A DNA stretch of 64,000 nt from Chthoniobacterales bacterium (GTDB taxonomy: Bacteria; Verrucomicrobiota; Verrucomicrobiia; Chthoniobacterales; Chthoniobacteraceae): NCBI GenBank assembly GCA_038207335.1, contig JBBQZX010000019.1, positions 48,681-112,680 of the forward strand, given 5' to 3'. This document shows positions 57,609 to 64,000 of the stretch, one piece after another. A program made the position numbers and the translations under genes. Position 1 is the first letter of the stretch; every line of letters starts with the position of its first letter. The notes beneath the pieces are model-generated. The model was not told where the DNA came from. It did not search any database and was given only the letters and a program-made list of their open reading frames with translations.

Positions 57609-57701
57609 TCGGTGGAAGCGGCGACGAAAAGCAGGGGAGTGAAGAAGCGGAGGTTCATGGAGGGGATGGGTGAAAGCTTGGTCACGAGTCATTCCGAGCG
57701 C

Positions 57702-57872
57702 TTACCTTGGCGCCAAACGGGTTCCTGCCGCGCGCGGCTGCATCCGCTGGAGCGAAAGGTGCCGCTCACGCAAGCGGTCGAGCATCTCCAGCTTTTCCAG
57801 CCACGGCAGCGCGCGCAAGCGGCGGCGTTCCGCTTCCTTGGATTGGATGATGTGCTGAAGATCGGGATTCAC
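57702..57872 (-). CDS. Small hypothetical protein (56 aa), partner of the nucleotidyltransferase-like gene
   Basis: GTG start overlaps the upstream TGA; MNPDLQHIIQSKEAERRRLRALPWLEKLEMLDRLRER...; absent from the ORF track (under 60 aa). Confidence 0.6.
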   Translation of the reverse strand: MNPDLQHIIQSKEAERRRLRALPWLEKLEMLDRLRERHLSLQRMQPRAAGTRLAPR

Positions 57873-58022
57873 GGCTGGAGGAAACGTTTCTCGAACTTCG
57901 CCCAGGCATCAAGCAGCGAGTGACGTGCGAGGATGTCGCGCAGGCGGTCCAGGTCGGCGATCCCCGCTTCGACAAAACATGACCAGCCGCGCGTGATCCT
58001 TGGCGCGTCCGGTTTGGAGCGC
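57869..58022 (-). pseudogene. C-terminal remnant of a nucleotidyltransferase-like gene, frameshifted and 5'-truncated at the IS200 repeat
   Basis: ALQTGRAKDHARLVMF [+1 frameshift near 57975] VEAGIADLDRLRDILARHSLLDAWAKFEKRFLQP*. Confidence 0.55.
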
Positions 58023-58033
58023 CGTCCTGCATC

Positions 58034-58137
58034 TGAATCCCAACGGGATTCCATCATCGAGCCCAAGGTTGCCGCGTCTTCGCGGCTACCTTGGGTCGTT
58101 GGAGAAAACGCGCATCAACTCTGAAAGAGTTGCATCA
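58034..58137 (+). repeat. About 100-bp three-hairpin REP-like repeat, copy 1
   Basis: aatccc-aac-gggatt; cccaagg...ccttggg; caactct-gaa-agagttg. Confidence 0.85.
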
Positions 58138-58590
58138 ATCCCACACATACCGTTCGTCGAATTCGATTTCGTAACGGCGGAGCAATTCGCGGAGTTCATC
58201 CTGAAACGAAATCTTGCGATGGTGTTCCGCCTGCCCGGCGATGTAAGTGCGCGCCGCCTCGACCTGCGAATGGCCGAGGGAGAAAACGCCATAGCCATTC
58301 TGCCACGCGAAGTCCGCCAGCGCGGGCGATTTCGTCTTCAGCCACACGGAGGAACCGCGTTTCAATTCCTTCACCACATCCGCCACCGTCGCCGTGCGGG
58401 AATGTGCGAAGAGCAGATGCACATGATCCTCGACGCCGCCGATGATGAGGGGCTGGCAACCGAGATTCGTGAGGATGCCGCCAAGGTAGCGGTGTAGTTC
58501 CTCGCGGAGCGGTTCGTCGCGCAGGAAAGGGCGGCGATCCTTGGTCGAGAAGACCGTGTGCAGGAGGATCTTTGCGAGCGATTGCGCCAT
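58135..58590 (-). mobile_element. tnpA: IS200/IS605-family Y1 (HUH) transposase, REP-associated-like
   Basis: HTVFSTKDR, EDHVHLL (HUH), WQNGYGVFS, YIAGQAEHH (catalytic Tyr); flanked by inverted structured repeats. Confidence 0.92.
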
Positions 58591-58617
58591 GGCGTCAGCG
58601 TGGGTGGTCCTCCAGGC

Positions 58618-58718
58618 TGATTCAACTCTTTCAGAGTTGATGCCTGTTGATGACGTGTTCCCAAGGTAGCCCGCAGCGGGCAACCTTGGGCTGGATGATT
58701 TAATCCCGTTGGGATTGA
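58618..58718 (-). repeat. REP-like repeat, copy 2 (inverted relative to copy 1)
   Basis: Reverse complement reads tcaatcccaacgggattaaatcatccagcccaaggttgcc...taccttggg...caactctgaaagagttgaatca. Confidence 0.85.
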
Positions 58719-58764
58719 GCCGTGGCTACGTTGGTAGGAATGGCGCGGTGCGAAGCGCACGCCG

Positions 58765-58873
58765 TGAACGCCAACGGCGTTCCATCATCCAGCCTAGGGT
58801 TATTTCGTTCCAACGAAACTACCCTGGGTCCATCCCACCCAACCAAACCGCCAACCCTGAAAGGGTTGAATCA
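58765..58873 (+). repeat. REP-like repeat, copy 3 (same orientation as copy 1)
   Basis: aacgcc-aac-ggcgtt; cctagggt...accctggg; caaccct-gaa-agggttg, with compensatory stem changes. Confidence 0.8.
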
Positions 58874-58899
58874 GCCCCGTTCCGAGCAGAAAAACGTCA

Positions 58900-62070: not shown

Positions 62071-62325
62071 TCAGCGATACACGTCCCGGCGGTGGCGAAC
62101 GCGATAGACTCGAACCACTCGAACCATGTCAGCGATCTCGTAAAGAACGCGGTAGTCGCCGACCCGAATCCGCCAGTTGCTCTTGCTTCCCGCCAGCTTC
62201 TTTGATCCCGGCGGCCGAGGATCAGTAGCGAGGACGGAAATTCCTTCGATCACGCGATCGTGAACCTCATCGGACAGTCGCCGCAGGTCCTTTTCCGCAG
62301 TGCGTTCAAGGACAATCTCAAACAC
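62071..62325 (-). CDS. RelE/ParE-family toxin
   Basis: AEKDLRRL...PRPPGSKKL..WRIRVGDYRVLY...HRRDVY. Confidence 0.93.
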   Translation of the reverse strand: MFEIVLERTAEKDLRRLSDEVHDRVIEGISVLATDPRPPGSKKLAGSKSNWRIRVGDYRVLYEIADMVRVVRVYRVRHRRDVYR

Positions 62326-62524
62326 GGGCCTTCCGACGCTCGGCGAGATAGTCTTTCATCGGACGAAACGAAAGCGGCTTGGTGCGTGCCTCTTTCAGAT
62401 AGGCAACGTCTTCGGCATCTTCCAATCGTTCGAGCAGCTCCTCATACTCCTTGATGGGGATGATCACCGAGACGGGCTTGCCCTTTCTGGTGATGATCTC
62501 GGGTTCGGCGAACGCAGCTTTCAT
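62318..62524 (-). CDS. Phd/YefM-family antitoxin
   Basis: IITRKGKPVSVIIPIKEYEELLERLED; overlaps relE. Confidence 0.88.
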   Translation of the reverse strand: MKAAFAEPEIITRKGKPVSVIIPIKEYEELLERLEDAEDVAYLKEARTKPLSFRPMKDYLAERRKARV

Positions 62525-62582
62525 GGGCGGAGGATACCTGACTTAAGCCTTCGCGTAAACCTCTGCGCCTTTCTCCACAAAT

Positions 62583-62662
62583 TGACTCGGTTGCTCCCAC
62601 AGCCTCGGCCTGCGGCCGTCTGCTTCGCAAAAGTCTTCTCGCTCGCCTCCCGGCGGCTCGAA
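62583..62662 (-). mobile_element. 80-bp multi-hairpin miniature insertion (copy C)
   Basis: aagga|ttcgagc...ccgagtca|atttgtg; hairpins cgcc-ggga-ggcg, tgc-gaa-gca, ggcc-gca-ggcc. Confidence 0.8.
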
Positions 62663-62674
62663 TCCTTCGACTTT

Positions 62675-62737
62675 TGACTCCGCTGCGCTCCGCCCTCTCG
62701 GGCAATGCTCCGCATTGTCCATCGCGCTACGCTCGGT
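62675..62737 (-). mobile_element. 63-bp multi-hairpin miniature insertion (copy D)
   Basis: gagga|accgagc...cggagtca|aaagtcg; hairpins gc-gta-gc, caatgc-gga-gcattg, gccc-gaga-gggc, gc-gca-gc. Confidence 0.8.
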
Positions 62738-62796
62738 TCCTCCATCCCTCTCGCCAGCGCGGCTTCTTCGATGTTCTCTTTCAAGGGTGACGAGCC

Positions 62797-63558
62797 TTAT
62801 GGGCGATTCCCGCGCGCTTCGGCAAGTCGCATGGCTTCCAACTCCCGCTTGAGTGGTTCCCAATAGGTGCGGTCTTTTGACATTTCCTCTCGCACCTCGG
62901 CATCCAGTGCCGCGGCGAGGGCATCGCGGTCGAGGGATTGCGCGGCGTTAAGCAGGGGGCGGCGAGGTGAGAGGATGTGCGCTTCTGTCGGGAATCGGCG
63001 GATGAGTTCCAAGAGCAGCTCGGGAGATCGACCTTCGAGGAGCCAGAATTCGATCCAGTCCGCGCGCGGCGCGTCGGCATTCTCGCGATAGTGGATGTTC
63101 ACGAGCAAGTCGATCACCGGCCAGTCCCGGCTCCGCTGCGTCTTTTTTGCCTGAACGAGATCGGGGATGCAGAGGAGATCGAAGATCATGCCGGTGTCGT
63201 CGGCGAATGACGTGCGGCGATCCCACAGCACGTCGAAGGGCGGCAGGTCGCGGAGCCGGACCATCACATCCACTCGCAGTTCCTCGACGCCAGCGGCGGA
63301 GCAACGGAAGTGAACGGCGTGGCCGCGTTCGAGGGCTGGAACATCGAAGGGCGGCACCGCGATGCGCCGGGCATCGAGTGCGCTCATGGCGGCGAGGAGC
63401 CGCTCGTAATTTGCGGAGTCGGCGAGGAGGACGAGATCGATGTCCTTGCTAACCTGCGCCGCGCCGTAAAACACGCAGGCCTGCCCGCCCATGAGCAAAG
63501 CCTGGACGCCATTCGTCCGGAGCGTAGAAAGGACTTGTCGGATCGGGGTCGGGATCAA
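62797..63558 (-). CDS. Pol-beta-superfamily nucleotidyltransferase-like protein (putative toxin/Abi-like)
   Basis: LMGGQAC..YG...SKDIDL (GG...DxD), VDVM, LVQAKKTQRSRDW; TTG start assumed. Confidence 0.75.
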   Translation of the reverse strand: MIPTPIRQVLSTLRTNGVQALLMGGQACVFYGAAQVSKDIDLVLLADSANYERLLAAMSALDARRIAVPPFDVPALERGHAVHFRCSAAGVEELRVDVMVRLRDLPPFDVLWDRRTSFADDTGMIFDLLCIPDLVQAKKTQRSRDWPVIDLLVNIHYRENADAPRADWIEFWLLEGRSPELLLELIRRFPTEAHILSPRRPLLNAAQSLDRDALAAALDAEVREEMSKDRTYWEPLKRELEAMRLAEARGNRP

Positions 63559-63673
63559 GGCTGCCTCCCATCGCCAGATAGTTGGCAAAAATCTTTTCGC
63601 TCTCGCGGAAGCGTTCGATCGGCGTGAGCGCGAGCCAATCCTTCCATTCGCCGGGAAGTTCCTCGTAGGTCAT
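63449..63673 (-). CDS. Small hypothetical protein overlapping the nucleotidyltransferase gene (putative partner/antitoxin)
   Basis: MTYEELPGEWKDWLALTPIERFRES...GGSLDPDPDPTSPF; 59 nt downstream of the thiC stop. Confidence 0.6.
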   Translation of the reverse strand: MTYEELPGEWKDWLALTPIERFRESEKIFANYLAMGGSLDPDPDPTSPFYAPDEWRPGFAHGRAGLRVLRRGAG

Positions 63674-63732
63674 GGGGTTCCATTTAGCAGCATCCGGGCA
63701 TCGGTCCAAGGTGAGTTATCAGGGCCGTCGGT

Positions 63733-64000
63733 TCACGCCTTCGCGTATAGCTCGCTGCCTTTTTCGGCGAACTCCTTCGACTTCTCCTCCATACCTTTCG
63801 CGAGGGCTTCCTGTTCGGAGATGGCCTGTTCGGCGGCATATTTGCGGACGTCTTCGGTGATTTTCATCGAGCAGAAGTGCGGGCCGCACATGCTGCAGAA
63901 GTGGGCGGTTTTGGCACCTTCCTGCGGGAGGGTTTCGTCGTGGAATTCGCGGGCGCGCTCGGGGTCGAGGCCGAGGTTGAACTGGTCTTCCCAGCGGAAT
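63733..64000 (-). CDS. thiC: Phosphomethylpyrimidine synthase, C-terminal 88 codons (5' part outside the window)
   Basis: [25 protein letters not shown]...[16 protein letters not shown] (CX2CX4C [4Fe-4S] motif)...YAKA*. Confidence 0.96.

Follow-up and report, generated by a model that had tools for sequence, protein, structure and literature searches.

A stretch of 64,000 nucleotides from the genome of a Chthoniobacterales bacterium (the window) carries toxin-antitoxin (TA) and defence genes interspersed with partial copies of the 3' end of the vitamin B1 gene thiC, here called thiC tails. The window lies on contig C19 of the source genome G000 and ends where the contig ends; other genomes, contigs and compared loci are given G, C and L numbers. 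Small cassettes are stacked in several other ways in bacteria. Integrons and clusters of attC sites lacking integron integrases (CALINs) hold small co-oriented TA and defence cassettes, which are reshuffled and of which the newest lies beside the anchor, and their attC sites have the form RYYYAAC...GTTRRRY, as a folded strand. The tandem accretion of integrative and conjugative elements and cis-mobilisable elements (ICE and CIME), reportedly described by Pavlovic in 2004 and Bellanger in 2011, is said to be site-directed, with cassettes marked by a repeat of the target end.

Arrays formed by rhs C-terminal displacement contain gene fragments that differ in length, lie downstream of an intact gene and each have further genes behind them (Jackson et al. 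2009, PMC2935791; a further source on this type of displacement is PMC8125069). According to the rhs model a circle is excised and re-enters by a single crossover, and a second crossover shunts the old end downstream without deletion (PMC2935791). The effector-immunity arrays of the Vibrio cholerae type VI secretion system (T6SS), which have been likened to integrons, are stacked without an integrase through an upstream homologous anchor and an illegitimate join, and spread by homologous recombination (Kirchberger et al. 2017, PMC5361080). Many hotspots of gene acquisition are free of integrases, the route of gain being open (Oliveira et al. 2017, PMC5635113), and TA islets without mobile genetic elements (PMC13617665) and additive flexible genomic islands at tRNA genes (PMC4898812) have been described as well.

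On our best reading the closest model for the thiC array would be rhs C-terminal displacement, here by homologous recombination on a housekeeping gene. The original prediction did not recognise a described system, whereas the mechanism matches the circle-and-homologous-recombination model for rhs tips as set out in PMC2935791. As at rhs, anchor fragments are co-oriented, of variable length and downstream of an intact gene (which for the window lies elsewhere), and thiC units are common to several genomes and decoupled from the phylogeny of the anchor. In distinction to rhs, where a new tip alters the protein and is partnered by the cargo, the C-terminus of ThiC is constant and the cargo consists of separate, unrelated TA, restriction and abortive infection (Abi) genes; rhs exchange is also limited to near-identical cores of one clade, while thiC exchange occurs across genera and families. 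The thiC array works like rhs displacement, but it is no rhs locus.

The Vibrio T6SS arrays share the integrase-free stacking and the spread by homologous recombination; as far as PMC5361080 describes them, they replace the old effector and keep the immunity gene, within one genus and without a repeated housekeeping tail. Hotspots without mobile elements and TA islets are equally integrase-free and defence-rich, with recombining core flanks and incongruent trees, and thiC, the core gene beside the cargo, likewise shows excess recombination and tree incongruence relative to rpoA (nine genomes). Exchange in those cases stays within a species or genus and takes place between the two core genes at the flanks, and an internal cassette-adding repeat is not described in the accessible text of PMC5635113 or PMC13617665. 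The additive islands at tRNA genes resemble the thiC array in that their cassettes are marked by a repeat of the target end and vary in number and order, and that near-identical ones occur in distant genomes; the islands are, however, site-directed with a fixed att length, while the thiC repeat varies 30-fold in length and no thiC integrase was found. The thiC locus works like an integron but is not one by the features of integrons: no intI adjoins the array on C19, the integron integrase of G000 being on C3, the separators are coding sequence without a common junction motif, and attC ends are absent as read by eye. What sets it apart from all systems compared is that a constant housekeeping tail serves unrelated defence cargo as a portable recombination arm, and does so across genera and families. 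A literature search, which reached few subscription papers, found no paper on thiC-tail cassette arrays.

thiC tails and their cassettes

We consider it likely that TA and defence cassettes bounded by thiC 3' ends are reshuffled among Verrucomicrobiota by recombination of the RecA type, and that the window holds a detached, partly misassembled block of them beside rpoA. As the original prediction had described, the window contains three thiC tails in the same orientation, each with its own stop codon (Table 1). Where they are uninterrupted, tails 2 and 3 have 83-89% identity with thiC across 125-152 nt (BLASTN, E down to 1e-44), and they are therefore not due to chance. The next gene starts 18, 18 and 67 nt after a thiC stop, exactly the predicted range of 18-67 nt, and the tails begin just behind the preceding cargo, at 15, 8 and 7 nt from its stop codon. 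BLASTN of the thiC end against G000 added further tails on C50 and C35, which had been overlooked.

The same cassettes follow thiC stops at other loci. The Phd-RelE pair does so in the window, L004, L013 and L021, and the small open reading frame (ORF) with a nucleotidyltransferase-like (NT) gene in the window, L014, L018 and L081; another NT gene is found in this position in L025 (twice), L069, L091 and L092, and the DUF2281 gene in the window, C50 and L257. Junctions of a DUF2283 gene, an antitoxin gene or an NT gene with the tail behind it recur, the same or nearly the same, with other cargo following. The insertion in tail 2 is common to the tail behind DUF2283 in L201, and both insertions in tail 1 are common to the tail behind the NT gene in G031. 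From these common insertions and junctions it follows that a tail is inherited in two parts: its 5' part moves along with the cargo upstream of it and its 3' part with the cargo downstream, as would be expected of crossovers inside the tail. Since 96 of the 142 downstream flanks matched no other, the pool of cassettes is large. Erosion is seen in L004, where a deletion at an 8-nt microhomology has fused a 37-nt tail to the beginning of RelE. Comparison of loci supports the proposal that a unit of thiC tail and cargo enters by recombination in thiC and leaves the gene intact.

Each unit might instead have arisen by an independent event of homology-facilitated illegitimate recombination during transformation, the tails being inert scars without a role in later movement. 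This route has been proposed for the immunity arrays of the Vibrio T6SS (PMC5361080), tail starts are scattered, and comEC and dprA are present. We nevertheless hold it to be improbable: identical cargo-tail junctions and miniature insertions are found in different genera with other cargo behind, so crossovers inside inherited tails are needed, and the illegitimate route is far rarer than homologous recombination (PMC5361080).

Palindromic miniature elements of 60-160 nt lie inside thiC tails of the window (62582-62662 and 62675-62737 in tail 1, 61499-61585 in tail 2) and of L011, L014, L184, L201, L256 and L257, and in L092 one is found within a long thiC copy. Window positions 57455-57612 are counted among these elements. 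The three in the window tails are single-copy in G000 (BLASTN), yet they are found again in other genomes.

Distribution among Verrucomicrobiota

Four sets were searched for thiC ends: 60 relatives, of which 52 had a thiC match; genome loci selected on a motif at -135 to -104 (124 matches, 80 with flanks, 78 distinct loci; positions are given as negative numbers, in nt upstream measured on thiC); 77 distinct metagenome loci selected on the last 48 nt of thiC; and an even sample of the phylum (300 genomes and G000, 56 with a match). Flanks in the fetched loci are mostly 5-6 kb. More than one thiC end was present in 10 of the 52 relatives, in 15 of the 78 genome loci and in at least 17 of the 77 metagenome loci, and the bearers of arrays are soil, sediment and freshwater bacteria. 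The number and order of cassettes behind thiC were expected to vary among relatives, and they do. Clear stacks, with a long or full thiC and two tails on one contig, are found in L247, L201 and L075, and co-oriented thiC fragments of variable length downstream of intact thiC in L008, L013, L014, L041, L075, L201 and L247. L041 is the genome of an isolate, a Verrucomicrobium, with a DpnII-type cassette before a 658-nt tail, and the arrays of L069, L075 and L081 are on contigs of 0.4-1.8 Mb.

Among 96 ORFs picked by hand and 16 more, TA, restriction-modification, Abi-like and unknown genes make up most of the cargo, and many cargo ORFs are without a Pfam family. A pool of non-defence genes (cupin, DUF4256) recurs behind the thiC arrays of distant lineages (L008, L017, L022, L025, L069, L077, L081, L247); to the same pool presumably belong genes of ArsR/SRPBCC-like and VOC-like type.

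Apart from thiC, G000 has single inserts bounded by a 48-180 nt copy of the 3' end of the upstream gene at six other genes, including a comM-like gene (C2:6986-12399, C25:1691-6732, C4:168755-169717, C31:60197-64736, C16:106387-116314 and C12:104880-107595). Reading its sequence, the C2 insert resembles a methylase and kinase block. Second partial gene copies are present at C38:30865-31404 and C38:26468-26743, 88-91% identical to C35 and C33, one of them at the contig end, where it may be a chimeric tip; we take these genes to be catalase-peroxidase-like and topoisomerase-like.

Recombination signal in thiC

The sequence of thiC does not follow that of rpoA. Compared to G000, G031 is 77% identical in rpoA and 90% in thiC, and G039 71% and 85%, while G005 of the same genus is 92% and 81% identical. 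At fourfold sites (36 pairs from nine genomes, with rpoA as the one control gene, G008 and G033 being left out for frameshifts) identity is 48.7% in rpoA and, along thiC, 50.6, 64.6, 63.6, 67.5, 73.2 and 70.7%, where 73.2% is the value just before the tail and 70.7% that of the last 46 codons. Pairwise identities of thiC are uncorrelated with those of rpoA (rho 0.06-0.23), and the two alignments reject each other's tree (approximately unbiased test, p 2.8e-37 and 8.5e-11).

Comparison of 24 tails to the nearest full allele gave 185 synonymous and 180 non-synonymous changes, against 742 and 539 for 71 full genes; the tails therefore come from working alleles and then decay. The C-terminus of ThiC is conserved among alleles and tails. 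The best-conserved 3' block of thiC is -168 to -94 (83-90% against 60-76% after it, a value partly biased by the search motif). The genes recA, comEC and dprA are present. As several tails start at ATG, a selected 44-aa tail peptide was considered; it is not supported, since the tails show somewhat more non-synonymous change than full genes and insertions frequently interrupt them.

Tail starts and the search for a recombinase

Tail starts (82 compiled by hand, related copies included, which are not independent) range from -23 to -728. A group of 53 occupies 28 positions between -110 and -171; of the others, 18 are shorter and 11 longer. In the metagenome set, 26 of 33 starts are at -110 to -171. 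No junction motif is shared at the tail ends. One explanation is that the tails are att sites of elements with a thiC-targeting integrase, which accreted in tandem, lost the integrase and remained as CIME-like relics mobilised in trans. The clustering of starts near -135 agrees with it, as does a 3'-end repeat behind the cargo, by which additive islands at tRNA genes are recognised (PMC4898812). The many start positions without a common motif disagree: they do not point to a single fixed crossover site, and erosion could blur one site but not lengthen a tail.

The searches for a recombinase also bear on this explanation. A tyrosine integrase profile was built from the 10 PF00589 proteins of G000, all 10 of which were recovered in a leave-one-out control (E 4.4e-17 or better). 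It had 0 matches in the 8,440 + 4,096 (12,536) ORFs of the thiC loci, and C19 has no PF00589 or PF00239 match, which supports the absence of an integrase noted originally. An orphan recombinase elsewhere in the genome had been considered; the 10 PF00589 matches of G000, one of them an integron integrase, are indeed there, and none is on C19. The presence of these matches in the genome, like that of a tail inside an integrative element of G033, counts in favour of att sites. Among the matches listed, the nearest PF00589 is about 55 kb from the G031 array, more than 340 kb away for L075 and about 168 kb away for L081, and none adjoins an array in 15 genomes except the tRNA element of G033 and a Xer-type gene of G034. 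In G033 one tail is inside a 43-kb integrative element; as the element is bounded by a 42-nt tRNA-Val repeat, its integrase targets the tRNA and the thiC tail is a passenger. Viral contigs had 0 matches to the tail pattern, while phage and plasmid collections gave 3 and 68 records with one place each, and the 23 of these 71 that were listed are ordinary thiC genes or unannotated. Taken with the distance of the listed PF00589 matches from the arrays, these results make thiC att sites unlikely, if slightly less so than inert scars.

The integron integrase of G000 (C3:278593-279171, L150) is above the TIGR02249 cut-off and on another contig than the array. The G033 element (L307-L309, L016; G033:C2:1257500-1300500) has many internal repeats of about 55 nt, and behind its thiC tail stand GmrSD, HEPN and type ISP genes. 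Two further genomes, G014 and G034, have detached tails near tRNA genes as well.

Position and assembly of the window

In the original prediction the array stood behind a native thiC with its stop at 63733, older units being pushed toward rpoA. Neither part is supported. The 268-nt piece at the contig end is not a functional thiC and probably comes from a co-occurring relative. The sole full-length thiC of G000 is at C38:16825-18861 (678 aa, above the NCBIfam cut-off, with a thiamine pyrophosphate riboswitch upstream), so thiamine-controlled read-through does not apply to the window array, unless a second full thiC has remained unassembled. Behind the C38 thiC are an ATPase gene, with AriAB as best PADLOC match, and a block of repetitive extragenic palindrome (REP)-like sequences and a transposase that is 95% identical to one in the window.

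Contig C50 carries, in this order, a gene which we take to be sugar-phosphate isomerase-like (it has no NCBIfam family), the 3' fragment of an NT gene, a small gene, an 86-nt tail and the DUF2281-PemK-small gene group, where the contig ends. The isomerase gene and rpoA were both found in 8 of 10 genomes of the same genus, in 6 of these 8 on one contig and in the same order. They are separated by 240-380 nt in G004, G005, G006 and G009, the four relatives in which the site is empty, by 1.3 kb in G008 and by 15 kb in G003; in G002 both genes face contig ends, and in G007 they are not adjacent. Given this conserved order, C50 most likely runs on into the window, and the array would most likely be a detached block that entered between the stop of the isomerase gene and the promoter of rpoA. 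The left end of the block cuts through an NT gene that belongs to thiC-linked cargo elsewhere. No end repeat of the inserted block was seen by eye, and no donor with thiC adjoining rpoA was found among the fetched thiC loci.

The gap in G003, another species (L158, G003:C31:4500-23000), holds a 15-kb block of SNF2 helicase, methylase and type III-like restriction genes, so that the isomerase-rpoA gap is itself a variable site. The leader upstream of rpoA (window 57284-57390) is conserved at 71-77% across the genus and has a stem.

The sequencing run X1, in which 94% of the sampled words occur, is possibly the source sample itself, and it is therefore not independent. Its contigs match unique parts of the window without difference at a depth of 14-20. 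The piece at 63542-63868, however, has a depth of 4.3 against 13-17 for the array, and the window letters at 63503-63518 are in no X1 contig. The X1 contig across 60671-61382 has 3 differences from the window, of which the two listed (61295 and 61310) are C50-type letters at full depth, and this makes the join of tail 2 to DUF2281 doubtful. C50 and the window differ at 42 places and have a common run of 43 nt at 61252-61294; the main organism would read from C50 straight into the window at DUF2281. These data suggest that the window tip and the tail-2 join are assembly joins, and the order of the window is probably chimeric in part. One X1 contig (61469-63562, depth 13) holds the NT gene, tail 1, Phd-RelE, DUF2283 and the 5' part of tail 2, and another (58821-60617, depth 14) most of tail 3 with its cargo; the placement of the former segment as assembled is provisional. 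No listed X1 piece spans the whole array, so the stack of four copies as assembled is putative.

The caveat that long arrays might be assembled from several strains thus applies in part to the window, in its shallow tip and its C50/window hybrid. That the whole phenomenon is a chimera of strains, each with one thiC and its own cargo, is very improbable, even though the tip has unsupported letters. The two X1 contigs hold tails together with cargo, joining whole thiC genes cannot produce a short tail flanked by foreign DNA on either side, and the isolate genome and megabase contigs have the same layout.

Cargo genes and other features of the window

The features are listed in Table 1. Of the original cargo labels, Phd/RelB, ParE/RelE, DUF2283, PemK/MazF and the kinase hold up against Pfam cut-offs and DUF2281 narrowly does not reach its own; DUF4258 is recognised through the homologue in L256, while the nucleotidyltransferase label is weak. 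The frameshift in the ORF behind MazF was confirmed by comparison with C50 and L004; the L004 homologue is the partner of a PIN toxin and is followed by a tail at nearly the same junction. Two blocks of the window look as if cassettes that stand apart at other loci had been fused. PADLOC gave no system for the window cargo, and the Ser/Thr kinase is given no defence system because its matches are kinase models of several systems. There is no tRNA within the window, and scans for promoters and for terminators gave numbers at the level of chance (1 against 1.6 and 10 against 8.1). No RNA dataset was among the holders listed for the sampled words, which has no bearing on expression.

Table 1. Features of the thiC-tail array and its right flank (window positions)
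Feature	Position	Strand	Remarks
thiC 3' piece, 268 nt, cut by contig end	63733..64000	-	92% to C38 thiC; depth 4.3 against 13-17
Small ORF of small ORF + NT cassette	63449..63673	-	follows thiC stop in L014, L018, L081; 5' part doubtful in assembly
NT-like ORF, weak label	62797..63588	-	DUF2204, E 0.057; about 65-80% nt to L014, L018, L081
thiC tail 1	62543..62781	-	about last 97 nt; two miniature insertions common to G031 tail behind same cassette
Phd/YefM antitoxin	62318..62524	-	above Pfam cut-off (Phd/RelB)
RelE/ParE toxin	62071..62325	-	above Pfam cut-off (ParE/RelE)
DUF4258-like gene, 3' remnant	61930..62040	-	intact homologue in L256, E 7.9e-5, below cut-off
DUF2283 gene	61612..61941	-	above Pfam cut-off; thiC tail also follows in C35, L075, L201
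thiC tail 2	61373..61603	-	about last 150 nt; 87-nt insertion common to L201; join to next cargo doubtful
DUF2281 antitoxin-like gene	61160..61354	-	just below Pfam cut-off; second version, 94% identical, at C50 end
PemK/MazF toxin	60831..61187	-	above Pfam cut-off
Frameshifted small gene behind PemK	60635..60828	-	frameshift near 5' end relative to C50 and L004
thiC tail 3	60476..60627	-	last 152 nt
Hypothetical protein	59950..60408	-	53% GC
Ser/Thr kinase	58900..59937	-	53% GC; above Pfam cut-off
REP-like palindromes	58618..58872	-	95% identical block behind cargo of working thiC on C38
Y1 (HUH) transposase, IS200/IS605-family, RAYT-like in setting	58135..58590	-	REP-like flanks
Two small cargo remnants	57702..58066	-	also twice (87%) near C38 thiC
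Palindromic element and right border of inserted block	57416..57612	.	homology with empty site resumes at about 57416
rpoA, conserved right flank	56189..57217	-	

The Y1 transposase and its REP-like flanks had been missed originally. The transposase is above the IS200 cut-off and below the RAYT cut-off, with inverted palindromes on both sides. The REP-flanked block (window 58033-58872; C38:20512-21530, the latter copy truncated) is 95% identical between the two thiC-related loci and stands after the last cargo at both. This position, the miniature palindromes within tails and a weak hairpin spanning -164 to -139 would suit a Y1 (HUH) transposase that, with REP-like palindromes, cuts and rejoins single-stranded cassettes at a thiC hairpin. 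Homologues of the transposase were found, however, only in the window, in 2 of 103 loci and in 2 of 79 metagenome loci, cassette ends have no REP sequence, and the candidate hairpin, at a stretch of ten protein letters, was rejected as not special, ranking 19 of 669 thiC windows. We give this explanation hardly any weight.

Proposed mechanism

A founding event, homologous and illegitimate at once, followed by excision and re-insertion through host recombination alone with thiC kept whole, is in our opinion the probable course of events. A rare event of this kind would place foreign genes downstream of thiC, with a spare thiC end following them. The unit may then loop out as a circle with one tail, or move as linear DNA with thiC homology on both sides, and could re-enter at any thiC or tail in another cell, which would leave the gene intact and shift older cargo downstream. 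A cassette keeps its own upstream and downstream junctions as its neighbours change, which the comparison of loci bears out. Deletions shorten tails and fuse cassettes in the case of L004 and may do so generally. Tails with the -168 to -94 block would stay recombinable across lineages, giving the cluster of starts from -110 to -171. Finally, blocks are found in other places, between the isomerase gene and rpoA in the window and in the tRNA-Val integrative element of G033, to which they may have been carried. The founding event, circles, RecA dependence, the route of uptake and selection for the conserved block are parts of the scheme that we infer.

Several observations weigh against this account. 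No circle or outward junction was seen in the X1 contigs, whose listed joints give no sign of a clean excision. Differences of 5-20% between tails and thiC alleles are frequent, and some of the crossovers that the account implies must lie within 39 nt or less, a short length for RecA. The thiC signal is drawn from one control gene and nine genomes, and conservation at -135 to -104 is inflated because the genome loci were selected on that motif. A Xer-type recombinase is found at a distance of 5.3 kb from the array of G034, a little beyond the limit of the fetched locus, and the searches for serine recombinases covered G000 (PF00239) and 5 genomes (PF07508). The join of C50 and C19 is derived from synteny and one run. 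In the even sample of the phylum just 2 of the 56 matching genomes (G000 and G039) have more than one thiC end, which confines the system to a subset of the phylum.

More tentatively, and with somewhat less than even confidence, the last 150 nt of thiC may be the common homing arm of a community-wide cassette system without recombinase, in which every cassette would have an arm of its own, the arms would be kept by selection on the spread of cassettes, the traffic would homogenise the 3' half of thiC across genera, families and orders, and tRNA-targeted elements would serve as long-distance carriers.

Implications

One warning to be drawn is that in these bacteria the 3' half of thiC departs from the rpoA tree. 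The thiC locus is a readable record, since the tail marks each insertion, the junctions are inherited and the anchor has a measurable gradient of recombination. The rhs circle model can thereby be tested with a housekeeping gene, the genus including an isolate genome (L041), and the DNA behind thiC tails is a place to seek unknown defence genes. If the homing-arm reading is true, these bacteria would have an integron built from RecA and a vitamin gene.

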